Shown: positions 1 to 34,694, numbered from the stretch's first letter. The stretch: DNA of 64,000 bases from an uncultured Erysipelotrichaceae bacterium (GCA_963535465.1 CAUSWF010000002.1:64606-128605); one strand, 5' to 3'. Notes: generated by a model not told the origin, from the sequence alone. Numbers and translations are program-made.

Positions 1-1943
1 GGAGAACCTACCTGTCTTACTCTTGGTATTTTATTAGGATCTGGATAAGTAGCACGAGGTCTATTTATAAAGTATTTATAAAATCCTCTATCTCTTGCCC
101 ATGTAAGCATAGATACACGAGTTGCTTCTATATTAGCTTGACAATTATAATACATTAACATTTGCATAGCTGTTTTGTAAGCAACTCTAACATCGTCAGG
201 TCTTGCTAAATAGTAGGCTACATACATTGGTTCTTGATTTCCAAAAGCTCTTTTCTTTATAGTAATACAGAATTTAGAAGGAGATTTAGTAGCTTCAGAT
301 GTTTGATCTTGTCCTATATCAATAGAGTCAATTCCAGCTACATATAAATTTTTCATTTCTTTATAAGAAATTTTATTTCCTTCTTCATCTTCTGATTGTA
401 ATAACCATAATGGTTGCTATATTATATGAACTTCGCCTGTATTAGTTGGAATAAACTAAACATCTGTAATATTATCACACATATCCTATTTTCTTCCATT
501 ATTTGTTTTAAATATAAATTTAAATTCTCCATGTTGTACTTTAGGACCTTGCTTATGTAAACGTATCTAAGCTAACTAATCTGCAAGTAAAACCTTATTA
601 AATTTATTATCTCCTTCAAGGGCAAAGGCTTCTTCAGCAGTAAAACAATACTCAGCACAGTATGTTACTAAAGCTTTAGGATCTTTATATCTGTCTCTAT
701 GTTTTTGATAATGTTCTTTAGCTTTTACTTGGTCAACAACTCCTCTAGAATCTACCATATCAGGTAAATCTAAAGCAGAATAAGATGGAATAAAAAATCC
801 AGTAAATACTTGACTTCCATCATCAGTGTAATTATGTCTATAAGGCAATACAAGATAGGATTCTGGATCATAATATATTGTTTTTAATCCATCCAAGGCC
901 GCACCCGAGTCCCCTCCAGTACCACCTGCTATAAGGATACCCATTTTATTACCTCCAACATCTACTAAAGCTTCTCCTTGAATAAAAGATTTTAGTAAAG
1001 TCGGATTAGATCCAGCTTCTTCAAACATAACAAGTTCCGCACGATCACCTCTTACTTTTGAAGGTTTATCAGCAACAATGCCTTCAATTTGAGACTTCCA
1101 TCCATCTTCTACTTTTTGTCCATTTATTATTTTATAAAAAGAGGCTCTTTTAATATCTGCCTTATCAACAACTTGTCTTAATTTAAAAAATCCTCCATCT
1201 GTTTTATCATTTAGGAAAGTTAAAGCTCCCCATACTTTCTCTAGAGTTTTTTCTAATTTACCAGAATCAAAAGCAGTAATCATAGTAATACTATCTCTAT
1301 AACAAGAGTACTCATTAGCACATACAGATGCTAATATTTCCGAAAAACCTACAGCACGGCTTTTCATCATACATATATTTCTTCTTAATAATTTACATAA
1401 TTCTAAATAATGAAAGAACTCATACTAACATACCATAAACCGTGGAAATATATTTTTACGTGCTGTACCAGCTTTTTCTACTCTAGAATTTTTAAGTTGA
1501 TAGTAATTTAAAAAGAAATAATTACATCCTGTAATAGTATAACCATTAACAGTCATTCCATTACGGCATCTTTTATATTCTTGATTCCAGAAATCTCTGT
1601 ATAATTTAGATCCAAATTGATATTGACAATAATGTCCTGTCTTTTCAAAATTATCTCTTGCTTCTGTAAACCATGAAGGATTAAAATCGAGACCGTGTAT
1701 TGCATCTATTGGTTTATATCCACATATTTCGTAGGATTGTGTTCTATCAAAAAAAGATATAGTCTAACTAATTGGGTAATCCCATTCAAAATTAGTTCTG
1801 ACTATATCTTTCTCTATATCCTAAATAAATTCCTTTTCTTCCTTAGCTTCGGCCTGTTTTGTAGCATCTATAATAGACTAAACCTCATCAGGAAGTTTAA
1901 TTTTTCTAGGACGACCTCTTTTACGTTTTTTAATTTCTTCCAT
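1..1943 (-). CDS. terL: terminase large subunit, N-terminal ~647 codons; gene runs off the window at position 1; translated through multiple in-frame TAG codons
   Basis: ATG at 1943-1941 overlaps the upstream TAA (ATGTAATGG). Reading the minus strand gives MEEIKKRKRGRPRKIKLPDEV[TAG]SIIDATKQAEAKEEKEFI[TAG]DIEK...FPRFMVC[TAG]YEFFHYLE...MMKSRAVGFSEILASV... This continues into the listed 264-aa ORF (576..1370), which ends only at a TAG, and beyond it towards position 1. The product has a T4 gp17-like terminase ATPase/nuclease layout. The only stops in frame are TAG. Confidence 0.7.
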
Positions 1944-2535: not shown

Positions 2536-3855
2536 TTATTTATTTAAATGAAGAATGCTTCTAAGTTTAACAAAATCAATATTACCTCCATTAAGACATT
2601 TCTTCATCTTTCCACCTTTTTTATCTTCTCTTACTTCAAACTGTGCTTTAGTTTTAGAAGATTGACTATTAAATTTTTTAATTAATCCTTGAAGTTCTTG
2701 TTCTTCCGCTGGAGTAAGTTTACCTTTAGCTCTTTTAGAAGTAAGTTGATACTGACGTGCATTATCTTGTTTAGTATAAGTAGGAACAACTTTTACATTA
2801 GAATTACCTGTACGCATATTTGAAACTGTAGAAGAAATTGCTTTTTTCTTAGTTTTATCTGCTGGCATTTCCATACCTTCTTCAGCAGTTCTCATTCCAC
2901 GACAAGCAGAGCATATACGACCTCCTGCTTTAAAATAATATTTATAAGTACCTTCAGGACATTCCCCTTTAATTTGTTTAATATAGTTTAATTTAGCACC
3001 AAGCTTTGCCATCTAGGTCTGTTTATTAGCTTCTTCTTGAAGATATTGTTGAAACTATTTCCAAGATTCTTCATTTGGTTGTAAATTATTAGCTTTACAA
3101 AATTCTGCAAAAGCTCTTTTAATTTCTTCGTTTTGGTCTAATTGACCTCCATTCTAATATTTCATACTATCGTTATTATAATCAAGTCTAATTCTACGTC
3201 TATCTCTAGCTCCAATATGCCCTTTAATACCTGTAGCTGCAAGATATTTTTCCCAATCTTCATCTTTACTAACATCTAATCCTCTATTTTTTAATTTAAT
3301 AGCTAAATCATTAATAAATAAATCTTTCCCCGGATTTATTAATGCGTTTCTAAATTGATCTATATTTTGTATACCATTATATCCTCTATCCATTAAAGAT
3401 CCAGATTGATTACGTAATCCTTGTCTTACAATAGCTCTATTTACTTGATTAAGTCTTGGCTATACATTTTTTCCAATTTCTGGTGTATAATTGTACACAT
3501 TAGGAGTAGTATTAAAAGAATGGTTTTCAAATTGTTCAGGAGTAGTTTTATCACCGTATCTAAATGTTTTAGCCATATTTAAAGCATTAGCTGTTTCATT
3601 TCCCCATAAACCATCTTCTTTAATATAACCTACTTCATTTCCATACATAGCATTGTACCATTTCTAAAAAGCAAGGGCATTATCAAAACCATGAGATTCT
3701 ACTCCATTATTATCCCATGTAATATTATTTAAATCTGGATTAGCATTAGCAAAAGCTTGAGCATATCCTAAACCATTATAACGACCTCTTTTAACTATTG
3801 CATTATCTTGTTTATATCTATACTAATCCCACTTTTGTACTGGTTTTTTTATCAT
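2536..3855 (-). CDS. hypothetical late/virion protein (~440 aa) with 6 in-frame TAG; C-terminal Cys-rich zinc-ribbon-like segment
   Basis: The listed minus-strand ORFs 3460..3648, 3154..3393 and 2536..3012 are in one frame, separated only by TAG codons at 3823, 3664, 3460, 3154, 3058 and 3013. The single product runs from MIKKPVQKWD[Q]YRYK... through ...GLWGNETANALN... and ...CSACRG... to ...LHLNK*, ending at TAA at 2536. Confidence 0.5.
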
Positions 3856-4663: not shown

Positions 4664-4903
4664 TTACCATTTATTACTAGGACATTTTTCTTCTTTTACA
4701 GAAGTTTTTAAATTGATAAAACATCCACATAGACCACATATTTTTTGATTATCTATTACCTCTAAATATTTACATCTATTACAATACTTTAATCTATTAA
4801 AAGAAAGCTCTTTATTTTTTCCAATAGTATAATTGAATAAACCTTTTATTATATGTTTAATTTTCGTTGGAAAATTCTCCATAATATTTTTTAGCTGCTT
4901 CAT
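4664..4903 (-). CDS. small Cys-rich (putative Zn-binding) protein, paralogue of 5474..5740
   Basis: 79-aa ORF with a CxxC...CGLCGC...KT...CPSNKW pattern shared with the ORF at 5474..5740. Confidence 0.35.
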   Translation of the reverse strand: MKQLKNIMENFPTKIKHIIKGLFNYTIGKNKELSFNRLKYCNRCKYLEVIDNQKICGLCGCFINLKTSVKEEKCPSNKW

Positions 4904-5480
4904 TCCTAGCTTTAACAGCTTCTTCTAATGTATCATAACGTCCAATATATTTAGTTTTATTATTTAATGTAATTTGGGCAGTCCACTTATTTTTATCTTT
5001 TGAAAAATATACACCTTTATGTCCAGATGTATTATTTTTTGGGACAGTACAATTACATAAATTTTGTTGGTTTGTACAAATTCTTAGATTGCATTTTCTA
5101 TTATCTAACCCATTATGATTGATATGATCTATCAATATTTTTGGATCAGTAATATTTAAAATATACCTATGCAATCTTCTAAATTGTTTATTATTAGAAG
5201 TACAATAATATGTATTTCTTTGCAGATCTGATTTATGCCATCTTATAGCTTTTACTTTTTCTATATCTTCTATATCTATTAAAGCTTTTCCACATATTTC
5301 ATTATCCCTATTTATTAAAAATATTTCAGCATGATCGTCAACTATTTCTATATGGTTTGTTTTATCTTTATACGAATATTTAAAAATTTTTCCGTATCTT
5401 CTTATTTGTGTATAATGTTTAGAACATAATCCATTAGCACAAACTTTTTTACCACATCCTTCAATTTTACATATTACCAT
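4857..5480 (-). CDS. HNH homing endonuclease with C-terminal AP2 DNA-binding domain
   Basis: HNH core ...HINHNGLDNRKCNLRI... C-terminal AP2-like segment GVYFSKDKNKWTAQIT...KYIGRYDTLEEAVKARNEAAKKYYGEF. Confidence 0.7.
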   Translation of the reverse strand: MVICKIEGCGKKVCANGLCSKHYTQIRRYGKIFKYSYKDKTNHIEIVDDHAEIFLINRDNEICGKALIDIEDIEKVKAIRWHKSDLQRNTYYCTSNNKQFRRLHRYILNITDPKILIDHINHNGLDNRKCNLRICTNQQNLCNCTVPKNNTSGHKGVYFSKDKNKWTAQITLNNKTKYIGRYDTLEEAVKARNEAAKKYYGEFSNEN

Positions 5481-5776: not shown

Positions 5777-7693
5777 TTAATATTCTATCGGTTTAAGTTT
5801 GGCTAATTTTTCTTGTTTAAAAACAGACTTTTTATAAAATTTTAGCATTGATTCTACTTCTTTCTTTAAATAAGGTAAATGATAAACTGTTTGATTATCA
5901 TTATGATCAAAGTGTACTAATATTAAATCTTTAATAGTATATTCTGGATTAATTTTTTGTAACATCCATGCATAAGTAGATAACTGTAAAGCATAATGCC
6001 AGTAATTGCAATCTTCCAAAGTGTTCAATGGATACTTCATTTTAACAGAACTACGAGTTTTAGTATCAAAGCCACTATGTTGTTTGATTTCTTTATTAGT
6101 ATTATGTGTAATTATACATTTATTAGTAACTAAAAAAGTATGTAAAGGGCTGTCTACTTCTAAACATTGTGTTGGAATAGTTTCTGTAATTTCTACTTTA
6201 TTAATATTTCTAAATGAATTTTTATCTATTTTTGGAAATTCAATTTCTTGATTTCTTATTAAAAAAGGATTTAATCCATTAGTTGAGAAACATACATCCC
6301 AAGCAATAAATTCTTTACCATTACATTTTTTTATTACTTCAAAAACAGTAGATTTTATACCTAATGTTCCTAATAATTTTACAGTACAATCTCTTTGCCA
6401 TTCTTGGCCCGTAGACATTACAAAACGTTTTCTTTTAGGATGATAATAACCATCAGTATCCATTAATCCTCTTAATAAGTCTAATCTTTGATTAAATGAA
6501 GCTGTATAATACTCTTCTGGAATATGTTTATTTTTTAAAAGATTCATTTTATTTAATAAAGTTCTTAATCCATAAACAGTCCTCATTTCAGTATTTTCTC
6601 TATCAGGATTATGTTGGGCATTTTCCCCTATATCAAAGCCACGATGTTTTAGTTCATCCCATAATTTAGATTGACTTGCTTGCGTAATAATACCACAATC
6701 TTTTGAACCATCACCTAACCAAACTCCTAATAAATAAGGATCTATTAGTAAATCTTTAGTTGGAGTATTAATAGGTTTTGGATTTAGTATTTTAGGAATT
6801 GTATAAGAATTTCTAGTATAAGTTTGCATATAATTATAAAGTTCCTTTGTAGTTATTACTCCTTTAGTATAAGGTGTTTTTTTACTTTGATTTTTAAATG
6901 ATACTTCCCAACGGTGATCTTCATCAGCTACTATAGTGTCTCCGTTATCAAAAGTTATTTTGAAGCATGGATTATTATGTATAGATGATTTATGCAAAAT
7001 TCGTGTAGGATTACCGTCTCCATCAAAAATAACATCCCCTTCTTTTACAGCTCCTATAGTAGTCCATCCAGAATTTGTTAATATTTCTGTGTCTAAAGGT
7101 AATCCTTTCCAATCCATGACTGTTATTTCATTACCTTGTTTAACTAATAAATCAATCTGTCCTGCAATTCTTAGCATGTTATCAGGAGAAGTACGAGAAA
7201 TTAAGTATTCAGGATATACTCCATTTTCTAAATCTAACGCAGTTCTTCCTTTATCGCATATAAATTTACCTCCTACACCAAATTTCTTTAGTGATACATT
7301 AGCACCCATCTTATACATACTTTGCTCTAGATCTGAATGTATTTTAGTACCTCTTTCACAAGATTCTCTATTAGTTTTATCCCATTCATCTAAAATACCT
7401 TGTTGTGCTTTATTAAAATCAAGTTCAGTAATATCATACGTACTTAAAAGTTCTTTAGGTATTTTGTGTGTATTCAACAAAGATTTTCTTTCTATTTTCC
7501 AAGCATCTGAGGGAATTAACTTTTCTAATGCCTTATATCCAGACCAAAAATCTTTATCAAAGGGTTGAGCAAACTTTTCTATTAAAGTTGTTACTGAAAT
7601 AAATCTATCATTTGTATCTGTATTCCAGTATACATGGTCATTTTCACTGAATGCAATGCTTCCATTCTGTTTGTCTATTTTCATATTATTCAT
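5777..7693 (-). CDS. PD-(D/E)XK exonuclease (lambda-exo / YqaJ-like) interrupted by a LAGLIDADG intein
   Basis: N-extein (aa 1-196) ...SVTTLI...GQIDLLVKQGNEITVMDWK. C-extein (aa 532-638) TNKEIKQHSGFDTKTRSS...YWHYALQLSTYAWML, typical of phage-type exonuclease motif III and the C-terminal Q/Y motif. Between them is a 335-aa Hint + LAGLIDADG insertion. No TAG codons. Confidence 0.65.
   Translation of the reverse strand: MNNMKIDKQNGSIAFSENDHVYWNTDTNDRFISVTTLIEKFAQPFDKDFWSGYKALEKLIPSDAWKIERKSLLNTHKIPKELLSTYDITELDFNKAQQGILDEWDKTNRESCERGTKIHSDLEQSMYKMGANVSLKKFGVGGKFICDKGRTALDLENGVYPEYLISRTSPDNMLRIAGQIDLLVKQGNEITVMDWKGLPLDTEILTNSGWTTIGAVKEGDVIFDGDGNPTRILHKSSIHNNPCFKITFDNGDTIVADEDHRWEVSFKNQSKKTPYTKGVITTKELYNYMQTYTRNSYTIPKILNPKPINTPTKDLLIDPYLLGVWLGDGSKDCGIITQASQSKLWDELKHRGFDIGENAQHNPDRENTEMRTVYGLRTLLNKMNLLKNKHIPEEYYTASFNQRLDLLRGLMDTDGYYHPKRKRFVMSTGQEWQRDCTVKLLGTLGIKSTVFEVIKKCNGKEFIAWDVCFSTNGLNPFLIRNQEIEFPKIDKNSFRNINKVEITETIPTQCLEVDSPLHTFLVTNKCIITHNTNKEIKQHSGFDTKTRSSVKMKYPLNTLEDCNYWHYALQLSTYAWMLQKINPEYTIKDLILVHFDHNDNQTVYHLPYLKKEVESMLKFYKKSVFKQEKLAKLKPIEY
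6101..7105 (-). mobile_element. intein (Hint domain with two LAGLIDADG motifs) inserted directly after the catalytic Lys of the exonuclease; residue 1 is Gly rather than Cys/Ser
   Basis: Block A GLPLDTEILT (canonical CLxxDTxIxT with G in place of C). Block B DTIVADEDH. LAGLIDADG motifs LLGVWLGDGS and LLRGLMDTDGYY. C-terminal VTNKCIITHN followed by +1 Thr. Confidence 0.6.
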
Positions 7694-8379
7694 TTACATA
7701 TTTTTTTATATTATTATAATCTAGTATTGCTGCTAACTTAGAAATTTCTGGACCTATAACTACTGGATAATAAGGCATCTTATACTCTTTCTTCTTTTTA
7801 TAAAGTATTATTATTAATCCAATAGGACTATTACTTCCTGCTATAGGATAAAAAGCAGCAGCTCTAGCATTACTTGCTAAAAGTTTATTGTAAAATTTTG
7901 GCATAGAATATTTAATAGAATCTATATTATTTACTCTTAATAGAGAGTAATTATTTATTTTCTATAACTCATCTATATAATAAACATATTCAAGTTCATG
8001 CCATTCTCTTTTTGTTTCTTGCGAATCTATGCCTCTAGTCTTCTCAGTAAGGCAATTTAAATACTAGTAACTAAAACCTTGTAAACTTCTAGTTGAATTA
8101 TGATAACTTAAAAGTATTACATTTGTAGCATCAGGATCTTTATCAAGTATTGCCTAAACACTTCTATCTATTTCTGGAGCCATTTTAAGAGTATACTTTT
8201 CAGCTTCCTACTTATCATTCTCCATAGATTCAGCCCATTGTTTAATGCTGTTTTTGTTTTCAGAAATTATATAATTTCCGAGGCACCATCCTAATAATCC
8301 AATTATAATTACAGTTTTTGTTTGTGTGCCCAAACTATCTAAAAATTCCCAAATCTTTTTTATTAATTTTAATTTCATT
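7686..8379 (-). CDS. membrane-anchored late protein (~230 aa) with N-terminal TM helix, 4 in-frame TAG
   Basis: ATG at 8379-8377: MKLKLIKKIWEFLDSLGTQTKTVIIIGLLGWCLGNYII... It continues through TAG codons (8213, 8156, 8069, 7969) into the listed 72-aa ORF 7686..7904 and ends at TAA. Confidence 0.45.
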
Positions 8380-8560
8380 AAATTTTTAATTAATACTTTT
8401 TATTAAGCTTTTACTTCCTTTCAAATCTTTACGCAAATCTTAATTCTAAATATAATAAATAAACTTACTAAATTTTGAACTAAACAAATTTAATAATATT
8501 TTTACAGTAATCAAATTTAGAGATATAAATTATAACAATTTTTATAAATACGTTTATAAT

Positions 8561-9330
8561 ATGGCAGTAAATAATAGTATTTACAATAACAAAAATCCTA
8601 ATATTAAATATAATATTTAGAATTTATTTACTACGGCTAAAATTGCTTCTTTATTAAAGAAAGGAGGTAATGTACATAGAACAGATATATTTCCAGGGGT
8701 TATAGATACTAATGCTAATTTTGATAATATGAGTCCTAGGAAAAAAAGAAAAAAGATTAAAAAACATCAAGATGGAGGAGAAATAGAAGTGGTTGAATAT
8801 AATCCTGTAGTATTATCTTTAAAAAAATTAGATTATCCAGAACTAAATAATATTAATACTAAAACTTTAGATATATCTGGATTATCTTTTGATAAATTTA
8901 CTCCACCTTCTATAAATAATATGCGCGTATAGGAAAATTATCCTATAAATCCAAATATTAGTTTAGAAGATTTATTAAAACAAGAAGGAGTAAATGCAAA
9001 AGTTTCTTCTGGTTATAGAAAGGGAGCAATATCAAAAAATGGACATAAAAGTAATCATAGTCATTTAAATTCTGATGGAACTCCAGGAGCTTATGATATA
9101 GTTCCTAATGATGGTAACTTTGAAAATCTTAGAAAGGAGATATATGGTAATCCACGTATAGTTGCATGGCTTAAAGCTAAAGGTTGGGGTATTTTAGAAG
9201 AAACTACTCCTAATATTATGAGAAAAACTGGAGCTACAGGTAAACATTGGCATTTTGGTCCTGATACTGCAGCCTTAGATATGTCTAGATAGAATGGAAT
9301 TAATTATACTAAATTAGGAGGTTTATTATG
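8561..9330 (+). CDS. M15-family (VanY/L-Ala-D-Glu-type) zinc peptidase, likely virion-associated peptidoglycan peptidase; 3 in-frame TAG
   Basis: The ATG at 8561 is in frame with the listed ORF 8729..8932. The frame continues past TAG at 8618, 8930 and 9284 to TGA at 9328. Motifs: SGYR, HSHLNSDGTPGAYD (H...D zinc ligands) and terminal GKHWHFGP. Confidence 0.65.
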
Positions 9331-10470
9331 ATAGAAACTACAAAATATGATAATATAGATCAGTAGTTTGAATATCCAGATTTACCAAGTATTAATAATT
9401 CTAATAATACTATAATAGCAGATGAGGCTACTGAAAATTATCTTAGGGCTGTTCAAAATGAATATGCTTTAAAGGCTTAGAGAGATAAAGAATTATGGGA
9501 ACAACAATAGAACGTTAAAAATAATTAGCCTAATTAGTAGTATTCATTTACAGATAATAATATACCTCAAATAAGTAGTTCTAATAAACAAGGATCTTAG
9601 AAAGTAAAAGAAATACTTGATAATATGATACATGATCCTACTAAAAAAACTATATTGTTAAAAATTGCAGAAAAAGAATCTAATTTTAAAATAGATGCTA
9701 AAAATGCTAAAAGTTCTGCTAGCGGTTTATTTGGATTTTTAAATTCAACTAAACAAAAATATGGTTATGGTAATACTGCTGAATAGTAGATTTAGGGAGC
9801 ATCTAAATTATATGATGCTCATGCTACTTAGTTATAGTAGTATATAAATAAATATGGAACTAGAGGTAAATCAATAACTTAGTTAATGTATGGTATGTGG
9901 TTTAGACCTACTTCTTTACTTCATTATTTACAAACAGGTCAAGATGATTATAAAGATGCACAAGGAACTAGTTTAGAAAAAATATTTGCAAAAATGGCTA
10001 AAAATGGAGGAATATTAAAAGCATAGGATGGAATAATAATTCCAAAAGCTCCTAATACATTTAGATAGTATGGAATAGATCCTAATAAGTTTGTTAATAT
10101 GTGGAACGGACTTGTTAATAAAGGAATATCTCCACAAGTAGCATTTGATGCTACATGGCAAGCTAATAAAGAAGTTCCTAAAGGATATTATTCATATGGA
10201 AAAAAGAAACCTAATCTCAATAGTTGGGTAGAAGCTGCTTCAGATAGTTTAACCACAGGAGCATATAAAAAAGCAAAGAATGCTTAGAATTTTGATTAGT
10301 ATAGATAGGCTACTTTTAAATATAATAAAAATCCAGAATATACTAATTGGTTAAAAACTAATAGATAGGATGCTGTTAATTTTATAAACAGATATAGACA
10401 ACAAAACGGAATAGTAGGTAAACCTATAGCTTAGCTTATCCCAGTAACTTAGATAATTAATAACGTATGA
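9328..10470 (+). CDS. lytic transglycosylase (SLT-domain) protein, Q-rich, ~20 in-frame TAG
   Basis: ATG overlaps the previous TGA (ATGATAG). The SLT catalytic motif is LLKIAEKESNFKIDAKNAKSSASGLFGFLNSTKQKYGY. The frame is closed only by TGA at 10468-10470. Many TAGs sit within Q runs (WEQQ[*]NVKNN[*]PN[*][*]YSF). Confidence 0.6.
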
Positions 10471-10748
10471 TAAAGAATTTTATAAAAAGTATGTTACTAG
10501 CTACTCAAGGATCTATAAGTTCTAAAAGAGTTTGTGGAGTTCTTGGTTGGTTAGTATGTTTAGGTATTTGTATTTACTGTACAGTTGGTTAGATACAAGC
10601 TCCTATACTAGCAGACAGTGTTCTTATAGGTAGCGCAGCATTAATGGGCGTAGATAGTGTTACAGGTATATGGAAAAATAAAAGAGATATAAATATTATA
10701 AAAGAAAATGAAACTAATGTAGAACAAAATAATAGTTTAGTATAATAA
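10467..10748 (+). CDS. holin-like small membrane protein (2 TM), 1 in-frame TAG
   Basis: ATGA overlap start. 93 aa: MIKNFIKSMLLATQGSISSKRVCGVLGWLVCLGICIYCTVG[Q]IQAPILADSVLIGSAALMGVDSVTGIWKNKRD... It lies between the peptidoglycan-hydrolase genes. Confidence 0.45.
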
Positions 10749-10750
10749 AT

Positions 10751-13183
10751 ATGACTCAAATAAAATTTGATAAATCTAAAAAATATTATGATAGTAAATT
10801 AAATAAATACTATGGTTAGGGTATTTGGTTTAAGGATACTAATGATGATGGTAAATATAATGAAGGAGAATCTTTAATTCCTATGGGAAATAGAATTAAA
10901 AATTCTAATAATTCTTATGTACAATTAAATTCTGATGGAAGTAGAACTTTATTATATTCTAAAGGTAAATTTACTAATACTAATATTTCAAATGTAGATA
11001 AATAGGCTATATCTAAAGGATTAATATATGGACGCAATGCTTCTTTACAAAATAATAAATATGTAAGATCTAATAATGGCATAAGTAATTGGGATATAGA
11101 TACAGTTAGACAAAAAAATAAAGATGGAAGTTATACAGATATTAATAATAATACATCTTTTATATATAATAAAAATAAATATATTGGAACAGCTGGCAGT
11201 AAAAATGTAATAGATTTATATCATAACGTAGTAAGTAATGATGGAGGTAAAACTTGGTCTAGAAATTCTACAACTCAAAAATCTGTAAGTCCTTTTATTA
11301 CAAGACGCTATGGTACATAGCCTTTAGGTTAGTATTTAAATCCAGATACTAATATTAAAACAAATTATGCTGAAGTTAATTTTGGAGATACTAATGGTTA
11401 GAATCAATATTTAAAAAATAATTATTGGGTATATGATGATGGTAATGGTAATGTTCAAACTATCGGATTTAGGTATAAAGATGGTAAAGATTATGCGTTT
11501 TTATCAGACGATAATAATTTTTTAAATGATAATGTTTCTGGTATTTTAAAATCTAAATAGAGTATAGGTTCATCTAAACTTAAATCTTATAGTGCTGGTT
11601 TTACTCCAGGTATGGAAAAATGGAGAGGAAAAGGTGGATGGTATACAAATGTAGGATAGGATCTCCCCGATATAGTATACGGTGCTAAAGATGGTTATTT
11701 ATATAATAAACAAGGATAGCAAATAGGATTTAATGCAAATGGTACTTATTATTTAAAAAATAATATTATTGCTTCTGAAGAAAAACCTACATTTAAGAAT
11801 ACTTTAGTAAATGGGTGGTCTGGCTTAGTACAAGACTTTAGTAATTTAAGTTCTAGATTTGATCCTTCTAATAATTAGGGTTTCCAAAATAGATTTACTG
11901 GAATATTTGGAGATTTAGGTAGAGGAATACAGCATGCTGCATAGGGTACTGTAGGGGCATTAGCTACTGCTATTATTCCAGATAGTTTGAATGAAACCAT
12001 AGGTAAGTATGGTTAGATTACCGATATAGGAAAAGATTTAAGAAGTATAACTAGTTTATTTGGTAATGGGAAATTTGTTACACCTTGGGATTAGGATAAC
12101 CATGGCCTTGTTGATTACGCAGATATAATTGGCAACAAACAAGGTCTTCAAGATATAAACGATGCATTAAATGGAGCAACTGTTTTAATCGGAACTAAAG
12201 GATTAGGCACAACAAAAGAAGTTTTAAAAGGAACACTGCAGGGAACAAAAGCTATGAGGTTTACTGAAGCTGCTCTTAAAGGAGCAAAAAATACTTCTAA
12301 AAATATATATTCAAATGGAGCATATTATACAGGAAAAGCAGGATTACGTCCAAGTAATATTACTCCTATGATTAATGCTGTTAAACAAGGTTTTAAAAAT
12401 GCACGTACTTATTATGAAGAATCTGCTCCAGTAGTAACAAAACCAACAATAGTTGAGTCTAAACCAGTAACAGCAGGTACAAAATAGTATATACAACCTA
12501 CAATAAAAAAACTTAATCCAAATAAAGGTGCTGAAGTAGTATATAATATGAAATTTAATCCTGTTTAGGAAGCTTAGAATATAATGGCTAAACCTAAATT
12601 TATATTTAAAGAAAATTCTATAGTACATGTTCCTAAAGGATTACCTGTAAAAGTAGAATAGCCTGTACTAACATAGCAACCTGTTGTTAAACCGTCTGTA
12701 CAAAAAATTCCTAAAACTGCACCTAAACAATTAACTTTAGAGTTTGTGGAAGATAAACCTAAATATGTACAACCTATATTAAAACAGCTTAATGATGCTA
12801 AAAAAGCTGAAATTGCAAGTAAAATAGTTCCTATAGATTATGCAAATGTAGCACATACTATAATGTAGTCTAAACCTACTATATAGCTTCCAGAATTTAG
12901 ATTTTCTTCTAAATTTAATCCTGTTTCTGAAGCTAAAGCTAGAACAGTTAGTAATACTTCAAATGTAGGAAATATTCCTAATAAAAATATTAAGTATGTA
13001 GAAAGTCAACCTACAGTTAATAATTCTAAAATACTACAGTGGAAGCAAGCTAAAGAAATTAAAGCAGTACCTAAAACAATGAAACCTAAAAGTAAAAGTA
13101 AAATATTGAAAAAAGTAAATAAAAAATATTTAGGTGGAATTTTAAATAATAAATTTAATAATTGGATAAATGCAAATAACTAA
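10751..13183 (+). CDS. large virion protein (~810 aa; tail fibre / receptor-binding candidate), ~23 in-frame TAG
   Basis: One frame is continuous from ATG 10751 to TAA 13181-13183 once TAG is read through, and it contains the listed ORF 12254..12487. Asn/Gly/Tyr-rich beta-like composition. Internal repeats KFNPV(Q/S)EA near the C-terminus. No recognisable catalytic motif. Confidence 0.5.
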
Positions 13184-13697
13184 TTTTATAAAATATATAT
13201 AGAGTTGGGAAGGAGGTTATGCTAATATACCTCAAGATAGTGGAGGTCCTACTAATAAAGGAATTACCCTAACTACTTTCCGATCTATATTTGGGCAAAA
13301 CAAAACAATAGATGATTTAAAGAAAATGACAGATGAGCAATGGTGGAAAGTATTTAAAACTAAATTTTGGGATAAATACAAAGCAGATAATATTAAAGAT
13401 GAATGGTTAAGATATTTATTAGTAGACTGGTTATGGTGTTCTGGTCAATGGGCTATTACTAAAGTTTAGAAATTACTGGGATTAAATCCAGATGGAATTG
13501 TCGGAGACAGAACTATAACAGCTATTAATAGTAAAAATCCTAAACAATTATTTGATACTATTTGGAAGATGAGAGAAAAATTCCTTCAAGATATTTCTAA
13601 AGGTAAGAATAGTATATTTTTAAAAGGATGGCTTAGACGTCTTAATGGGCTTAAATATGGTTATTTAGTAACTAGTAATAATAAAATATTAAAATGA
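13170..13697 (+). CDS. endolysin: GH108-family lysozyme N-domain plus PG_binding_3 C-domain; 2 in-frame TAG
   Basis: MQITNFIKYI[Q]SWEGGYANIPQDSGGPTNKGITLTTF (GH108 'EGGY...D.GG.T..GIT' motif) ...WAITKV[Q]KLLGLNPDGIVGDRTITAIN (PG_binding_3 'LQxxLG..DG..G..T'). Ends at TGA 13695-13697. Confidence 0.7.
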
Positions 13698-13924
13698 GTT
13701 TTATAACAAATTTTAAAGAATCCAATAGGTATAAACACTTTTGGTGTGCTATACCTATTGGATTAATTTTTACTATACTTTGTGTTATTGGGTGTGCAGG
13801 AGGTATGGAATTTAAAGATAAACAATATAGTAATTATTGGGATTGGAAAGATTTTGGATTTACTGTATTAGGAGGATTTGTCGGACAGATATTATAGATT
13901 ATATTAATATTAATTTTATTATAA
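13694..13924 (+). CDS. small 2-TM membrane protein (holin/antiholin-like), 1 in-frame TAG
   Basis: MSFITNFKESNRYKHFWCAIPIGLIFTILCVIGCAGG...FGFTVLGGFVGQIL[Q]IILILILL*. The listed ORF 13694..13897 stops at a TAG; the true stop is TAA at 13922-13924. Confidence 0.4.
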
Positions 13925-15273
13925 TGCCAAAACCTTTTGATTTAGATTTACATAAAAGTTATAATGTAAATAATAAAAGTAAAAATTATAAGTCCTTTAC
14001 TGGGGCTAATGGAGAATTATGGTATACTGATAGACCTTTAATTACTTATAATAATAGTAAATTAGCTTATGTAACTAACGGAAGAAATGCTAGATGGGTT
14101 ACTGTTGGAAATGAATTTAATACTTAGCCTTAGATGTTATCTAGAGAACAAGCTGTAAAACGAGATCTTAATAAACCTAGAATACAAGCAGCTAATGATT
14201 TAACTTAGGGTTTAACTGATCTTATTACAGGAGGAATGGCTGGATCATTAAGAGAAGGGGCTTAGAATCTTACTAAAGGTAATTATATTAAGGGTATTTC
14301 ATAGTTAGCTACACCTGCCATGTTTGGATCTGGAATTGCAGGAAATATAGCAAGAGCAGGTGTCGGATCTTATAATTTATTAAATGAAGATAGAGTTAGA
14401 AAAACATATAAATATATTAATAATAAGGAATATGGGAATGCTGCTGTTTCTGGATTAGGAGATATTTTAAATGGAGGTATGGCTATACATGGTGGTACTT
14501 AGTTATTTAAAAACTACAGAATAGTTGAACCTAAATTATTAAGTGCTAATTTAAATAATAAAAATATGCCATATTACTCTTAGTTTGAATAGTAGGAAGC
14601 ATAGCAACATATGATATCTGATATAAAAAGAGGTTATTAGAATTTTAAAGATTGGATGACGAATCCTCATTATTTAGAATCTACTTTAGACAACATGGAA
14701 GAAGCTAAAAGAATGGGTTTAAAATATACACCTACTTATGATAAACCTCATTATAAAGCACTAATGTAGAACGGTATTAAAATTAATTTTAAGAAATAGA
14801 TGCAGGGTAATGGTGCTACTAGTTAGTTTGGTGCATAGGCCGGACATCCTGCTGAAGTTGATTTAAATTTAGGATCACCACAATCATTTTTTAATACTGT
14901 AAGACATGAATCTGGGCATGCTGCTTATCATGGTAATGGGTTAACTCCAGATGAACTTAAATATTTAAGATTTAAAACTCATTAGGCTTTTATAGATAAG
15001 GCTGAGGCTGGTCCTTATGATTTTCATTAGTAGACTGGTGAAGCTGCTATGAACGGTAGAGATTTAGGACATGATTTAGGAATATCTGTAGGACAATCTT
15101 ATCCAGGATATTAGAAAGCTTTAGAAACATTAAATTCAGGACTAGGCAAATCTACAAAAGATGGAATGATTAAATTATTTAAAACAGATGAACAATCTAT
15201 GCCTTATGTATGGAAATTACTTAATGGTACTTTACTAGGAGGAGCTTTAGTAACTAAATTTAATAATAAATGA
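13924..15273 (+). CDS. virion/lysis-associated protein (~449 aa) with HExxH zinc-metalloprotease-like motif; ~20 in-frame TAG
   Basis: ATG 13924 (taATG overlap). The frame contains the listed ORF 14320..14502 and ends at TGA 15271-15273. Motif ...SFFNTVRHESGHAAYHGNG... (HExxH). Confidence 0.45.
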
Positions 15274-15278
15274 ATAAA

Positions 15279-15313
15279 GGCGAGCATCAATTAAGATGTT
15301 CGCCTTTCTTTTT
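15279..15313 (+). terminator. rho-independent terminator closing the recoded late block
   Basis: GGCGAGCATC-aattaa-GATGTTCGCC: a 10-bp stem with one G.U pair, followed by TTTCTTTTT. Confidence 0.6.
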
Positions 15314-15782
15314 AAATTTAAAATTATGAAAAACTTTATTAATTTCTTTTTCTAGATCTTCTTTTATTTTTCTATTAATTCTATCAGCAATTTCTTGCTA
15401 CCTAATACATATTTTCCAAGAAGATTTTTCATTTTCTATCTGGATCTATTGATAGTTTATTTAACTCATCTTGATAATCTAAAAACCAAGATTCGTCTAA
15501 ACATTTATTATCTGTACATAACTTTCTAAATGTATATAAATTCTTAATTAAAAACTTAGAAAGTTTCTTAAGTATTTTAATTTTTAATTTCATCCAATAA
15601 TTTTTGTTTCCAAAATAAATATTCTTTTGAATTTTCTAGTTTATGTAATTTAAAGAATTTCTTTATTCTTTTTATATTCTTTATACTATGATATAGTTTA
15701 TTCTTATAACATTCTGAAATTTCATCATTAGATACATTAAAATACTTACAAAGTTTAATCATTAAGTGGTATACTAACATAG

Positions 15783-16134: not shown

Positions 16135-16503
16135 TTAATCATTTAAATACGTTACTAAGCGTTTTATTTCTGCACGTACTGTGTTATGTACTACAGTTTT
16201 AAACATATCAAGTACTTCGCTTGCAGTATTGTTTAAATTCCACTCATTGAGGGTTTTACCTGTTTGAGTTTCTACTTGCTCACAAGCTTTATTGAAAACA
16301 TCATCATCTAAATTATTTAAATAATCCTTAAGTTCTTTAGCAGATTTAAGTTCACTTTCATCACCAACTAACTTAATTGATATTGTTCCGTCTTCCTTAT
16401 TAATTTCATCTACTTTATAAGTAATGCCATCAATAATATAATTTTCCTCTTCTATACTATTTTCGGCAATACTATTAATTAAATTTTGTAATACTTCTTG
16501 CAT
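16135..16503 (-). CDS. hypothetical protein (acidic, 122 aa)
   Basis: Intact ORF with no TAG, same strand as the adjacent helicase-like gene. Confidence 0.4.
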   Translation of the reverse strand: MQEVLQNLINSIAENSIEEENYIIDGITYKVDEINKEDGTISIKLVGDESELKSAKELKDYLNNLDDDVFNKACEQVETQTGKTLNEWNLNNTASEVLDMFKTVVHNTVRAEIKRLVTYLND

Positions 16504-16707
16504 GTTTATTATTTAATTTTTAACTGTTACAATTATATATAAATATTAATTTATTACCAAATATAAAATGTTAATTTTTGTTGTTTTGTACTAAATTTTC
16601 TAATTTTAAAATTCTTTCTTTAAGCGACTTAATATCATTAGTATTCTTTTGTATTCTCTGTTCATGATTCTCAAGAACAGATATAATTTCTTGGTTTATT
16701 TCTTTTT

Positions 16708-18180
16708 TCATAATATAAATTTATAAATAGTTACTCTTTTATAATCTACTTGTTTTCTTGTCTTTTTAAATTCAGGAAAAAATGATTTTATTGTATTATT
16801 ATTCCATGTAAGTTGGTGTTCTTTTAATAAAGGTTTAAATATTTCCTGTATTTCATCTGAAGTATATTCTGATTTATTCAGTTCTACTAATTTATTATAT
16901 ATAAAAGGCAAGCCATGTTTAATTTTACTTGTAGCAATATTTGGTGTAAATGAATATTCCTCTGCTTCTTTTAATACTGCTAAACTATCAGAATAAATTT
17001 CACTAATTAAATCGTAGTTATATAGATCCAGTTTTCTAAGATTATCATCGTAAAATATCTTATCATTATGTTTATTAAGATATAAATTATAATAAGTATC
17101 TTTACTAAATAATTTTAATTCAGTTATATAATCATCAGCATCTAATTTATCTGTAAGTTCTGCTTTTCGTATACCTCTTCTTCTGGAATCTTCTACTAAA
17201 TTTAGAAAGTCTGTTTTAATAGTTCCTGCATATCTATGTTTATTTGTATTTAATATAAGTATACATTCATCTTTATATTTAGAATCTCGAAGTCGTCCAC
17301 ATACTTGTCTAACTTTAGTAGCTATATCTAATACTGTATTAGATACATTAGTATCTGATAATATTATACATAATCCATTTTTATCGTAAATATCACATCC
17401 TTCAAAAGCACATGATGTATAAAAATTTAAATGTTTTACTTCTGAATTTACTTCTGCATAATTACGTATTTTATTTTTACTATTTACTGAGCATACTACT
17501 CTATAATCTGGATTATCTAATTTTTTAATGATCGCATTTATTGTAGCTATAGAATTTAAAAATATATGTAAGTTTCTATCTTTATACATATCTATAATAT
17601 ATAATAATTCTTTCTGCACATAAAAAGTATCTCGAATATTTAGTTTAACAGGAACAGAATTTTGCCATTCATATGTAATTTGAGGTATATCCTTTAACTC
17701 TTCTAAAATACATTCAGGCTTAAGCGGAGTAGCTGTTAAGAATGCCCAATCTTTAAATTTATTAAAGTTTTGAAGAATATTTACAATAGCATCATTTCTA
17801 AAACTATAATCATTAAATAATAAGTGATATTCATCTATTAGTAAAAAATAATCTGGATAATTAGGAATTAACTCCATAAGTCTTGGAAGAGAATCATATG
17901 TAGCTATAATCTTTTTATATTCTAATGCTTTCTTTAAATAATTTTTAATTACTGTATTACCTACATCTCCCGTAACTCCTAGAACATTATCATTTGATTT
18001 AGATATTACTAAATTTTTAGTAGGACTAAGTATTAAACTATTCCGCCTAGCATTGATTTCAAGAGTTGTTCCGCCACAACCTGTGATTCCTTTATTAATA
18101 AGACAGTGTGATGGTAATTCATTAATTATATCTGATAAATATTGACACTTTTTGTCAATTAAAATTTTTTCATTTTGCAT
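16708..18180 (-). CDS. superfamily-2 DExH-box helicase-like ATPase
   Basis: P-loop GITGCGGTT, DExH-like LLIDEYH, motif III LTATP. 490 aa, no TAG. Confidence 0.5.
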   Translation of the reverse strand: MQNEKILIDKKCQYLSDIINELPSHCLINKGITGCGGTTLEINARRNSLILSPTKNLVISKSNDNVLGVTGDVGNTVIKNYLKKALEYKKIIATYDSLPRLMELIPNYPDYFLLIDEYHLLFNDYSFRNDAIVNILQNFNKFKDWAFLTATPLKPECILEELKDIPQITYEWQNSVPVKLNIRDTFYVQKELLYIIDMYKDRNLHIFLNSIATINAIIKKLDNPDYRVVCSVNSKNKIRNYAEVNSEVKHLNFYTSCAFEGCDIYDKNGLCIILSDTNVSNTVLDIATKVRQVCGRLRDSKYKDECILILNTNKHRYAGTIKTDFLNLVEDSRRRGIRKAELTDKLDADDYITELKLFSKDTYYNLYLNKHNDKIFYDDNLRKLDLYNYDLISEIYSDSLAVLKEAEEYSFTPNIATSKIKHGLPFIYNKLVELNKSEYTSDEIQEIFKPLLKEHQLTWNNNTIKSFFPEFKKTRKQVDYKRVTIYKFIL

Positions 18181-18636
18181 ATTTTTAAAATTTTAAATTT
18201 ATTAGTACTTAAGTATGAAAAAAGGTTCTCGTGTCAAACCTTAATATTATAGTGCCAAGACAAAATCGGGATTGTGTCAAGACATATCTTGTGCAGTAAC
18301 CAAGACAATGCTAAAGTAAATATATTATTTTTATTTTCAAATTATATTTTTAATTTTAACATTTTTTTATTTAATCTTTCCCCCCCCATTTTAAAAATGT
18401 AGTTCGTTTTAAATTTATTATAATATCGTATAAACGAGAGTATAATTAAAAAATTTATAAGTTATATGAGAGAGAGTCCACTCCCTTCGGTCGCCCCCCG
18501 CCTATCGTCGTGGGAAAATAGTCTACATTTATAAACTCCTATATGAATTTAGGGGATTGAACATTAAAAGATTGTTTAATCCAGGCTAAGTACGCATGCC
18601 TTAAATTGCGCACACCTCAAAAAGGATTAAGACTTA

Positions 18637-18942
18637 ATGAATTTCATTAATCTTACTCCACACGCTATTGTGCTGAACGATGGTGCAGTGTACCAGCCTT
18701 CTGGTACTATAGCACGCGTTTCGGCTCAGTTCAGCGAGGTTGTAGATGGATTCTGCACACAGACCTTCGGGGATGTTGTAGGACTGCCTGCACCTCAGGA
18801 TGGTGTGTACTACATCGTATCTGCTATGGTCTTTGCAGCCACAGACAGAGTTGATGTAGTTGCACCAGCCACTGGGCATCCTGCGTGTGTAAGGAATGAC
18901 AAAGGTCAGATAGTATCTGTACCTTGCTTCCTTAGACACTAA
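18637..18942 (+). CDS. hypothetical protein in GC-rich island
   Basis: 101-aa ORF in ~50% GC DNA. An antisense ORF overlaps; the + strand is preferred because of a plausible start after an AT-rich leader. Confidence 0.35.
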   Translation: MNFINLTPHAIVLNDGAVYQPSGTIARVSAQFSEVVDGFCTQTFGDVVGLPAPQDGVYYIVSAMVFAATDRVDVVAPATGHPACVRNDKGQIVSVPCFLRH

Positions 18943-19067
18943 GGACGTGTGGGACTTTGGTTTAGGCAATACCAAAGGTTGTAGATAAAATTGCAGCTGA
19001 GCTAAAGGAGTGGTAGCTTTATGTCCACTCCGTAGTTTATAATTCTTTTATAAACTTTAATAAAATC

Positions 19068-19691
19068 ATGGCAAAACGTGATTCTTATTTAAAGCTTATA
19101 GTCAGAGCAGAATTCGAAGAGAAGACTGTCTGTGCTTATGAAGATGGGGATGAAACTTTCCACACAATACATCACGGCGATGCTTGTGAGGCAAGTACAT
19201 TTCAGGTCTTCAAAAGGGCATGGGTAGAAGTTTATTCGATCTTTCCTGCGGAAAAGAAGTTATTGAAAGAATTTAATGACTTAGTTGCATCTAAGAAGGA
19301 TGCATTCTACGCATTAAGAGATTCTTTCAGTGAGTTCTATGAATTCCCTAAGATCGAGATAAACACTTCTCGTGTGGAGTTCTGCGAAGAAGAGAGAAAG
19401 CTAGGAGAGTTAGACCTCACTGAAGAAGAGTATGATCAGTTAAAAGCTGATAAGGACTTCTTTAGTAAAAGAGGTACTTTCGTTATATGCTATAACGGAA
19501 AGAACTTCAATGGTCTAGCTATTGCTGGTCAACCTGGATTCAACTCTAAATTTAACTGGGAACAGTTAAGATCAGAGTGGCATCCTAAGGAGATCAGCGG
19601 CATTCTTAGAGAAGATTGGGATTACCTGAAAAACAGGGATTACAGTCTTTTCGAAGACTTGCTCGAGGCTAGTCTCTCTGAACTGATGTAA
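19068..19691 (+). CDS. hypothetical protein (207 aa) in GC-rich island
   Basis: Intact ORF, TAA stop, GC-rich codon usage unlike the rest of the phage. Confidence 0.45.
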   Translation: MAKRDSYLKLIVRAEFEEKTVCAYEDGDETFHTIHHGDACEASTFQVFKRAWVEVYSIFPAEKKLLKEFNDLVASKKDAFYALRDSFSEFYEFPKIEINTSRVEFCEEERKLGELDLTEEEYDQLKADKDFFSKRGTFVICYNGKNFNGLAIAGQPGFNSKFNWEQLRSEWHPKEISGILREDWDYLKNRDYSLFEDLLEASLSELM

Positions 19692-19913
19692 GCTCAAGTT
19701 GAGTTGCTAAACTCAATATATAGAAAAAATTAGCTATGCGAAGCTACCTCGCAGAATAAGTAGGTAGCATAGTTTCAATTATCCTAAACATTAATAAATA
19801 TGGATAAAAGAATCGTCATCATTGAACCAGACGGACGTGTTGCCGTGTTCAATGATAGAGGGGCTTTCCTCGCTTACTTAGAAAGTAAGAAAGAGGCGTA
19901 GTCTTCTCGAGTT

Positions 19914-25013: not shown

Positions 25014-25086
25014 GGGGCAATAGCAAAGCTGGTCAATGCGTTGGACTGAAAATCCAAAGATAATGGTTCGATTCCATTTTGTCCCA
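25014..25086 (+). tRNA. tRNA-Phe (anticodon GAA)
   Basis: ggggcaa-ta-gca/D-loop/tgc-g-ttgga/CT[GAA]AA/tccaa-agata-aatgg/ttcgatt/ccatt-ttgtccc-A. Confidence 0.7.
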
Positions 25087-25094
25087 CTACAAAT

Positions 25095-25166
25095 CGCGAG
25101 GTAGAGCAGTGGTAGCTTATTAGGCTCATAACCTAATGGTCGCAGGTTCGATTCCTGCCTTCGCAA
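25095..25166 (+). tRNA. tRNA-Met (anticodon CAU), initiator-like C1xA72 mismatch
   Basis: cgcgagg-ta-gagc/agtggta/gctt-a-ttagg/CT[CAT]AA/cctaa-tggtc-gcagg/ttcgatt/cctgc-cttcgca-A. Strong similarity to bacterial tRNA-fMet. Confidence 0.65.
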
Positions 25167-25172
25167 CATATT

Positions 25173-25259
25173 GGAGAGTTGGCTGAGTGGCTTAAAGCGC
25201 TGGTCTTGAAAACCAGAGGGCGGTAAAACGCTCCAAGAGTTCGAATCTCTTACTCTCCT
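25173..25259 (+). tRNA. tRNA-Ser (anticodon UGA), class II
   Basis: ggagagt...ctggt/CT[TGA]AA/accag-long variable arm-aagag/ttcgaat/ctctt-actctcc. Confidence 0.65.
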
Positions 25260-25267
25260 CTTATATT

Positions 25268-25353
25268 GGAGATTTAAGCCTAATTGGTAAGGCAGCAGTT
25301 TGCTAAACTGCCAGTAATCGTAGTAATATGATGTATAGGTCCTATAATCTCCA
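25268..25353 (+). tRNA. tRNA-Ser(GCU)-like with non-canonical T-arm (possibly degenerate)
   Basis: Good acceptor stem (ggagatt/aatctcc), D-arm and anticodon arm gcagt/TT[GCT]AA/actgc. The region where the T-arm should be is a short hairpin (tatagg-t-cctata) without a TTC loop. Confidence 0.35.
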
Positions 25354-25375
25354 CAATTAATTTAAATAAAAGATT

Positions 25376-25585
25376 ATGAAAAAATTTAATAATCATTTGT
25401 TACCAAATGGTTTATGGTATTTAGTACAAGCATACCTTATTAGTACAGAATGGCAATGGTATAAGGATAATAATATTAAATATGAATCTGCTACAAAATT
25501 AACTGCTGGGCAATTATCTAATTTAGTTGCTAATGCTATTAGTTGGAGTGTAAAACGTATTCAATATAATACTGAAAATACTTAA
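25376..25585 (+). CDS. small hypothetical protein, member of a tRNA-adjacent paralogue pair (with 27967..28194)
   Basis: MKKFNNHLLPNGLWYLVQAYLISTEWQWYKDNN... versus MKKFKGHVLPDDLFYMIVSYSEKTKWQWFKDNN... Each lies immediately 3' of a tRNA gene. Confidence 0.45.
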   Translation: MKKFNNHLLPNGLWYLVQAYLISTEWQWYKDNNIKYESATKLTAGQLSNLVANAISWSVKRIQYNTENT

Positions 25586-25635
25586 AAGATAAATAAAAAT
25601 CTACAGGCAATAATAATTTAATTAAAGCCTATTAT

Positions 25636-27932: not shown

Positions 27933-27966
27933 CATTTTAATAAATTAATTAATTAATTAAATAATT

Positions 27967-31782: not shown

Positions 31783-31787
31783 AAGTT

Positions 31788-34684: not shown

Positions 34685-34694
34685 TATTAAAAAA

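Follow-up and report, generated by a model that had tools for sequence, protein, structure and literature searches.

The window analyzed here is a stretch of 64,000 nt from an assembly listed as an uncultured Erysipelotrichaceae bacterium (GCA_963535465.1, CAUSWF010000002.1:64606-128605), and all coordinates are counted from its first letter. At 8561-15273 it carries a phage block of seven genes, named g1 to g7, which encode a predicted endolysin, two small membrane proteins, candidate cell wall hydrolases and two large proteins of this lineage. Under the standard code the longest open reading frame (ORF) in this interval has no more than 96 aa. When TAG is taken as a sense codon, seven abutting ORFs are obtained on the + strand, with 67 in-frame TAG, as compared with 60 CAA/CAG codons, and neither TAA nor TGA inside any of them, and the first TAG lies at codon 20, 13, 42, 23, 11, 68 and 68 of g1 to g7 respectively. 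The genes are joined by ATGA overlaps at g1/g2, g2/g3 and g5/g6, a 14-nt overlap at g4/g5 and a 1-nt overlap at g6/g7, and a gap of 5 nt lies between g3 and g4. An earlier reading of the window (the original prediction) had described a co-directional block of peptidoglycan-directed genes in which every gene depends on TAG, and this description holds. The positions of the genes, their domains and the neighbouring features are given in Table 1.

Table 1. Genes, domains and flanking features of the block at 8561-15273 of the window.
Feature	Position	Strand	Length	In-frame TAG	Description
g1	8561-9331	+	256 aa	3	N-terminal extension, then probable LAS/M15-like Zn-peptidase domain at C-terminus
g1 catalytic-type domain	8957-9289	+	C-terminal 110 residues		SGYR, S164-x-H166, D179, H229-x-H231
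g2	9328-10470	+	380 aa	22	Q-rich N-terminal region, SLT domain, C-terminal domain X
g2 SLT domain	9616-9975	+			E117-S118 catalytic-type motif, GLFGF
g2 domain X	10030-10467	+	~145 aa (residues ~235-380)		Invariant Glu is E282 in KEVPKG
g3	10467-10745	+	92 aa	1 (codon 42)	Small protein with two predicted transmembrane segments
g4	10751-13183	+	810 aa	19	No function assigned
g5	13170-13697	+	175 aa	2 (codons 11, 100)	GH108 + PG_binding_3
g6	13694-13924	+	76 aa	1 (codon 68)	Small protein with two predicted transmembrane segments
g7	13924-15273	+	449 aa	19	HExxH protein, lineage-restricted
g0m	7686-8378	-	230 aa	4	Conserved; transcribed divergently from the block; context, not a proven part of it
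Divergent intergenic spacer	8379-8560	.	182 bp		AT-rich; between head/packaging operon (- strand) and block (+ strand)
Terminator-like hairpin	15276-15317	+			Intrinsic-terminator-like hairpin and T-run; 13-bp stem with 6 GC pairs; 3 nt past g7 stop
tRNA, CUA anticodon	15782-15870	-	89 nt		Amber suppressor; extra variable-arm hairpin
tRNA, CUA anticodon	15876-15948	-	73 nt		Amber suppressor; downstream of TAG-free - strand genes 16135-18180

The coding meaning of TAG was taken from the comparison with the closest relative, the contig L005, which carries g1-g6 at 78-93% amino acid identity and the same pair of suppressor tRNA genes at the same position. Where a TAG of the window is aligned to a sense codon of L005, that codon is CAA or CAG in 12 of 22 cases, and the reverse comparison gives 14 of 23; judged from these alignments, TAG is glutamine (Gln) in these phages. 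Between the two versions of g1-g6, 36 TAG positions are held in common.

The gene with the clearest identity is g5. Its residues 8-92 match GH108 (PF05838; 4.9e-21, 75.5 bits with a cut-off of 21.2) and residues 95-158 match PG_binding_3 (PF09374; 1.4e-11, 44.8 bits with a cut-off of 24.6), so that the lysozyme expected at this position passes both models on its read-through translation. The best PHROG match is an endolysin family (1.5e-33), and NCBIfam gives NF040573, the 'holin-associated N-acetylmuramidase' (2.8e-13); because this match reaches 50 bits where the equivalog cut-off is 240, g5 is placed within the NF040573 superfamily and not in that equivalog. The stretch SWEGGY at residues 12-17 (E at 14, found by inspection) contains EGGY, which we take to be the catalytic-type motif of the GH108 family. 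From its sequence there is no ambiguity about g5 as a GH108 muramidase that also carries PG_binding_3. The hydropathy profile of g5 gave no signal peptide, transmembrane (TM) segment or signal-arrest-release (SAR) segment (maximum 0.52); without a hydrophobic N-terminus it is therefore not a SAR endolysin, and the absence of signal and SAR segments predicts an endolysin of the cytoplasmic, holin-dependent type. It resembles the holin-dependent GH108 muramidases (PF05838 + PF09374; NF040573) in its two domains, the EGGY motif, the lack of a signal and the adjacent small membrane proteins, and differs in the low NF040573 score.

These small membrane proteins are g3 and g6, for which two TM segments each had been proposed and are supported by hydropathy, the second one of g3 being weak. 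In g3 the first segment (22-40) is strong (Kyte-Doolittle 2.27) and the second (47-65) reaches 1.58, followed by a highly charged C-terminal tail, KNKRDINIIKENETNVEQNNSLV; the topology is class-II-holin-like. The homologue of g3 in the related contig L001 lies two genes upstream of GH108 and adjoins another TM protein, and in the phage MT835539 g3 is kept at the DNA level. In g6 both segments (16-34 and 58-76) are strong, and the loop GMEFKDKQYxNxWDW is conserved. It matches phrog_38535 (3e-13), its start overlaps the stop of g5, and its homologue in the crAss-like phage cr113_1, which GenBank lists as a 'putative lipoprotein', overlaps the annotated endolysin at its start. Possibly g6 is a lysis-associated small membrane protein, either holin, antiholin or a partner of these. 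The identity of g6 as a lipoprotein or u-spanin was rejected, as the Cys of its lipobox-like VIGC is not conserved in gp54 of cr113_1 and the periplasmic loop has only ~23 aa. The holin hidden Markov models (HMMs) of Pfam, PHROG and NCBIfam matched none of the block proteins.

The SLT transglycosylase that had been proposed for g2 is confirmed from the sequence for the isolated domain, which scores above the cut-off of PF01464 (24.0 bits against 21.3, E 3e-5); the full-length protein gives no SLT match in Pfam at E <= 0.1. In PHROG, g2 matches families of transglycosylases, baseplate hubs and tail fibres (3e-6 to 1e-5). The motifs AEKE117-S118-NF and GLFGF (at 133) are present, the latter as GLFQF in relatives (by inspection), and the domain is 50% identical to the SLT half of a fusion protein of L001. 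SLT scores of the relatives P0035, P0036 and the MT835539 protein are 3e-5 to 3e-9. A GenBank phage search with g2 returned only MT835539 and one weak match in an Acinetobacter phage.

The C-terminal part of g2, here called domain X, is new in this analysis. Only 32 relatives were obtained in an exhaustive HMMER search, with invariant Glu, Tyr, Trp, Asn and Leu, and the domain itself has no match in Pfam or the PDB. Its partners in other proteins are five kinds of wall-hydrolase domain, namely LAS (the g1-type peptidase), SLT, NlpC/P60, Glucosaminidase and Phage_lysozyme2. A GH73-like identity, suggested by the resemblance of YNKNPEYTNWL to YATDPxY, was rejected because P0156 has its Glucosaminidase match in another part of the protein.

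The original prediction was to be refuted if domain searches failed on the read-through translations, and for its M15 peptidase, g1, the curated HMMs did fail. The other evidence makes such an assignment probable nevertheless. After an extension of residues 1-~130, which contains the lysine-rich KKRKKIKK, the domain of g1 has the residues S150, R153, S164, H166, D179, H229 and H231 invariant in alignments of 22-29 homologues, in a Zn-ligand pattern. An AlphaFold2 (AF2) model of the domain has a mean predicted local distance difference test (pLDDT) of 92.3; compared with the PDB, its top eight matches are M15 proteins of VanY type (LdcB, VanY, VanXY), with Hedgehog N-domains lower (all weak, E >= 0.04, TM-score 0.3-0.43), and compared with BFVD it finds 'Peptidase' (1e-10) and 'Tail protein' (5e-8), both true homologues, and then weak M15A matches. 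Relatives of g1 without its 5-residue loop insertion reach Peptidase_M15_3 below the threshold (E 0.005-0.03, 15-17 bits with a cut-off of 23.2), and hhalign of the g1 family profile with the M15-type endolysin of cr113_1 gives E 2e-4 over the SGYR..SxH motif. The curated libraries are silent, but because invariant residues, model, sub-threshold HMM matches and hhalign agree, g1 is called a probable LAS/M15-like peptidase and not a demonstrated member, and its activity is likewise putative.

For the two large proteins the labels given earlier fared less well. The proposed fibre-like nature of g4 found no support in Pfam, PHROG, phage-record or PDB searches, and no relatives were detected outside the lineage. 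Its N-terminal ~145 aa are common to a 423-aa protein of L001; beyond them the sequence varies, and has a middle part rich in G/A and a C-terminal region rich in K/P/Q with short repeats. In g7, which had been proposed as a metalloprotease, the motif RHExGHxxxH is present (HESGH at residues 328-332, nt 14905-14919), with GEaxMNGRD downstream at 372, and both RHE[STV]GH and GE..MNGRD are conserved in all full-length homologues inspected; the metalloprotease label did not pass the HMM search, neither sequence nor profile of g7 matching Pfam or the PDB. The family has 25 members, is restricted to these phages and varies in its position among them, and the AF2 model (pLDDT 42.8) is unusable for a fold search. 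By its motif g7 is no more than a candidate for a zincin-like protein. Of the four domain labels, two pass the HMM tests, one is probable and one is carried by a motif, and the interpretation built on them is partly supported.

The source of the block was traced through the terminase. The interval 3-1943 (- strand) of the window codes for the first 647 residues of the large terminase (TerL), running off the left end, and is 96% identical to TerL of L005, which matches the PHROG TerL family at 4.5e-72 and has ~28% identity to Crassvirales terminases and 45-50% to unclassified human-gut 'Bacteriophage sp.' records. Homologues are carried on contigs of 160-168 kb. Because of these terminase matches and contig sizes, the window is assigned by sequence to a large (~165 kb), divergent crAss-like phage, with the block divergent from the head/packaging operon; the host is probably a Bacteroidota bacterium. 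Neither DNA nor protein searches of GenBank phages, for which the block, g1, g4 and g7 were the queries, returned anything useful, and PDB sequence and profile searches with g1, g2, g7, g4, A1, A3 and A5 gave no meaningful match.

The gene content of L005, L001, L007, MT835539 and L008 shows that the block is kept as a neighbourhood in relatives, in which modules are fused, split, swapped or lost. Two of these contigs, L001 and L007, are TAG-recoded too (TAG use was examined in L001), and their block holds a papain-like Peptidase_C1 protein, a 414-aa LAS+SLT fusion, a homologue of the g4 N-terminal part, two small TM proteins, GH108 and a coiled-coil protein resembling 'virion structural' proteins, after which comes a reverse transcriptase. 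In L001 there are also a protein with two LysM domains and YkuD and a separate domain-X protein, and some proteins of its block match the 'tail protein' and 'virion structural protein' families of PHROG. LAS and domain X are joined in P0005. Gene fusions connect the LAS, SLT and X modules to one another. MT835539 carries domain X and SLT, along with the g3 homologue and a small HExxH protein, and in L008 a g7 relative stands beside a giant fibre-like protein with Peptidase_S74. Where L007 has a 717-aa protein of the g7 family, L001 has a 255-aa HExxH protein.

Some further observations were made on these relatives. In L001, which is a more distant relative, the LysM and YkuD protein (L,D-transpeptidase-type) lies at 12488-14227, the Peptidase_C1 protein at 9429-10004 and the reverse transcriptase (RVT_1) at 18531-19700, the last possibly being part of a diversity-generating retroelement. 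The small HExxH protein of MT835539 (MT835539.1, our L006; 5973-6293, - strand) has 106 aa, a HETIH motif and hydrophobic segments, and lies beside the g3 homologue. It is the third HExxH protein in blocks of this kind and is apparently unrelated to the others; between block versions, homology of these proteins was not shown (hhalign E 0.2).

A short motif, K-x-[QYL]-[NDE]-G-G-x-[ILV], was seen in late proteins only: twice in g1, at the C-terminal end of g4, and twice in m3, a lysine-rich late protein of 439 aa beside the terminase (2536-3855, - strand). Looser copies are present in g2 (~10000) and at the C-terminal end of g7. These K-x-Q-x-GG motifs are conserved in L005 and lie near domain borders in g1, g2, P0005, P0146 and MT835539. 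An explanation of the C-terminal LGG motif as a mere Shine-Dalgarno sequence of the next gene was rejected, since it fits g1/g2 only and not g4 or g7. The stretch DGLWGNETANALN of m3 resembles a peptidoglycan-binding-domain motif by eye; Pfam gives no match.

The use of TAG was compared between the block and other late genes. Among the Gln positions the share of TAG is 0.53 in the block, 0.55 in the portal gene of L005 (36 TAG) and 0.43 in TerL of L005 (15 TAG), and within the block the canonical lysis genes have the smallest number of TAG (1-2 each), with shares of 0.22 in g5, 0.25 in g3 and 0.33 in g6. The right-hand 45 kb of the window holds TAG-free replication genes (NrdD, helicases, DnaB and a Toprim-domain protein). 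That every block gene needs suppression, as the original prediction stated, is right, but this is not special to the block: because terminase and portal are equally recoded, TAG gating belongs to the late region as a whole. A published hypothesis (10.1101/2021.08.26.457843; PMC10136315) has the late genes and lysis genes of crAss-like phages gated by suppressor tRNA, and a coupling of lysis timing to suppressor tRNA in the present phage would be hypothetical as well.

Two observations belong to the same subject. The 89-nt tRNA-CUA folds as a cloverleaf with a 5-bp variable-arm hairpin and is class II-like, while its L005 orthologue is a normal tRNA of 73 nt; this form raises the question of its charging synthetase. 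Two early ORFs, at 53649-55229 and 28767-29558 (+ strand), have their sole in-frame TAG just before TAA (codons 515/526 and 258/263). As the TAG is so close to TAA, it may still act as stop for some early genes, whose products would then gain 5-11 residues when suppression sets in.

Taken together, we regard it as probable, on balance, that a holin-endolysin core is interleaved here with accessory, probably virion-associated wall hydrolases, forming a late 'host-envelope' module of a crAss-like phage with TAG-to-Gln recoding. The conventional lysis core would consist of the g5 muramidase, which would reach the wall through a membrane lesion made by g3 and/or g6. In an accessory muralytic layer, the g1 peptidase and g2, with its SLT domain and domain X, would most likely be carried in the virion and breach the wall during entry, and g4 and g7 would be large lineage-specific partners, probably virion- or tail-associated. 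The block proteins would be made only once the phage tRNA-CUA is abundant, its two genes lying just downstream behind TAG-free genes; because all seven genes contain in-frame TAG, none of them should be translatable earlier. The parts of this scheme that we infer are the holin role of g3/g6, the virion association of g1, g2, g4 and g7, the peptidase activity of g1 and the timing effect.

The N-termini of g1 and g2 had been described earlier as typical of virion-associated lysins. Extensions of about 95-130 aa are indeed present, hydropathy gave no signal peptide, SAR or TM segment in either protein, and among the proteins with homologous domains are some that bear the name tail protein, baseplate hub or tail fibre. 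The missing export signal, the extensions, the fusions and the tail-type names fit virion-associated lysins, but do not prove them.

Several points weigh against this interpretation. The 'tail protein'-type names of the homologues are automated annotations and the evidence for a location in the virion is indirect; g1 matches nothing in Pfam, PHROG, NCBIfam or by PDB sequence search, and its model finds only weak fold matches (E >= 0.04, TM-score about 0.4). No function can be assigned to g4 and g7, and the L005 block has no g7. The 810-aa g4 stands between g3 and g5, g6 is without the charged C-terminal tail typical of holins, and a spanin candidate was not identified. The host, finally, is derived only from the crAss-like affinity.

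The block could instead be a pure lysis cassette, in which g1, g2 and g5 would all be endolysins freed together through the g3/g6 lesion when infection ends and cutting different peptidoglycan bonds so that lysis is fast, with g4 and g7 as lysis accessories such as spanin substitutes. The hydrolases do share one tightly coupled operon with holin-like genes, an export signal is found in none of them, and in canonical crAss-like phages an M15-type peptidase adjoining the g6 homologue is annotated as endolysin. Yet the long non-catalytic extensions of g1/g2 and the multi-domain fusions of their relatives are more typical of virion-associated hydrolases, the homologous domains are found in large tail-, baseplate- or fibre-labelled proteins, and the TAG load of g1, g2 and g7 is far above that of g5, g3 and g6 and like that of structural genes. 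We consider such a cassette unlikely.

A bolder proposal, decidedly unlikely at present, would make domain X an undescribed peptidoglycan-directed domain (catalytic and of glycosidase type around the invariant Glu, or a module docking to wall or virion) swapped among at least five wall-hydrolase classes, and would take K-x-Q-x-GG as processing sites of an entry complex of several enzymes, matured by proteolysis and delivered with the virion, that would be specific to large crAss-like phages.

It is very unlikely that all seven genes are structural and code for a tail or ejection apparatus, with GH108 as tail lysozyme, the small TM proteins as ejection or membrane-channel parts and the real lysis genes elsewhere. 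In Crassvirales, tail-fibre genes surround the lysis genes, and the Peptidase_S74 neighbour of the g7 relative and the PHROG matches of the L001 proteins agree with such an apparatus; against it stand the small size of g5 with its two domains, its endolysin and 'holin-associated N-acetylmuramidase' matches, and its overlap with g6, whose family abuts endolysins in other crAss-like phages. The idea that g7, or Peptidase_C1 in L001/L007, cleaves K-x-Q-x-GG at module borders and so frees or activates LAS, SLT and X is improbable to the same degree, for although the motif is confined to late proteins, kept in L005 and near domain borders, and a protease-type gene stands beside the block in every version examined, the motif was defined by eye after data inspection and its cleavage is conjecture, the three HExxH proteins are not demonstrably homologous, L005 keeps the motifs yet has no g7, and the window is without a Peptidase_C1 homologue.

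The kind of block favoured here, a lysis core with accessory hydrolases, and its TAG dependence are already known from crAss-like gut phages. The recoded phages of this group (10.1101/2021.08.26.457843; PMC10136315) share with the window the low GC, the standard-code replication genes, the TAG confined to structural and lysis genes, the phage tRNA-CUA by the lysis genes, the reading of TAG as Gln and the idea that suppression gates lysis. In contrast, the phage of the window is larger and divergent in its terminase, its endolysin is a GH108 muramidase where an amidase or M15 type is reported in those phages, and its canonical lysis genes are the least, not the most, TAG-loaded of the block.

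In cr113_1 (Buchavirus coli, NC_055896) the corresponding locus has the 'putative lipoprotein' gp54, the 'endolysin' gp53 and, several genes downstream, the 'holin' gp49. The 2-TM protein of the g6 family overlaps the endolysin start there too, and the locus likewise lies amid large tail and receptor-binding genes. The endolysin, however, is a 138-aa protein of M15 type (SGYRS..SQHxxGxAxD), whereas in the window the M15-like domain is in the separate g1 and GH108 has the endolysin position; SLT and domain X were not seen in that locus.

Among virion-associated hydrolases, gp13 of phi29 consists of a lysozyme-like domain and an M23 peptidase of the LAS group, and gp16 of T7 has an N-terminal SLT domain. 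The combination of a glycosidase or transglycosylase with a LAS metallopeptidase is repeated here, either fused (L001, L007, P0035) or in adjacent genes (the window), and so are the lack of an export signal and the non-catalytic extensions. The relation is by domain superfamily only, the peptidase of the window is M15-like and not M23, its virion location is putative, and domain X is without a counterpart in those proteins.

For annotation, these data indicate that code-15 translation is needed to find the lysis core of large, poorly annotated crAss-like lineages, and that LAS, SLT and domain-X modules, shuffled and mostly missed by current HMM libraries, accompany this core. For experiments, the block offers candidates for entry lysins in phages of gut Bacteroidota, together with an uncharacterised domain associated with the wall. 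The published idea of preferential recoding of lysis genes is tempered, since these genes carry the fewest TAG here. No new class of system is opened, and domain X and the module shuffling are the most interesting residue.

The limits of the block were also analyzed. The divergent spacer upstream of g1 is likely the late promoter region; it has sigma-70-like matches at 8428-8456 and 8532-8560, which are weak promoter evidence because the promoter scan was no richer than that of shuffled sequence. The hairpin behind g7 probably marks the end of the block transcript, and the ORF 15296-15529 was rejected as a gene because it begins inside this hairpin. A fusion of g1 and g2 by frameshift or readthrough has no support; they are separate ORFs in L005 too, and AGGAGG lies just 5′ of the g2 ATG. 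On the other side of the spacer, g0m has a single moderately hydrophobic N-terminal segment (residues 22-40, hydropathy maximum 1.51), and its orthologues adjoin the block in L001, L005 and MT835539; family searches with g0m gave no match.

Other features were noted elsewhere in the window. In the - strand late region, an ORF at 1553-1888 (-) was discarded as spurious since it overlaps TerL in another frame. At 4857-5480 (- strand) a TAG-free ORF with HNH and AP2 domains (homing-endonuclease type) lies within the TAG-containing late operon, and the called-gene list of L005 has no gene of like size or domains at the corresponding position. The PD-(D/E)XK exonuclease gene at 5777-7693 (- strand; 638 aa, no TAG) has a LAGLIDADG-type insert of ~330 residues, which looks like an intein or homing-endonuclease insertion because the orthologues in L001 and L005 (303-305 aa) are without it. 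The standard-code early region contains a phage-encoded tmRNA at 35955-36274 (+ strand) with the tag peptide AKVIPMNSFAVRIAA, and ten ordinary tRNAs scattered over 25014-37922.

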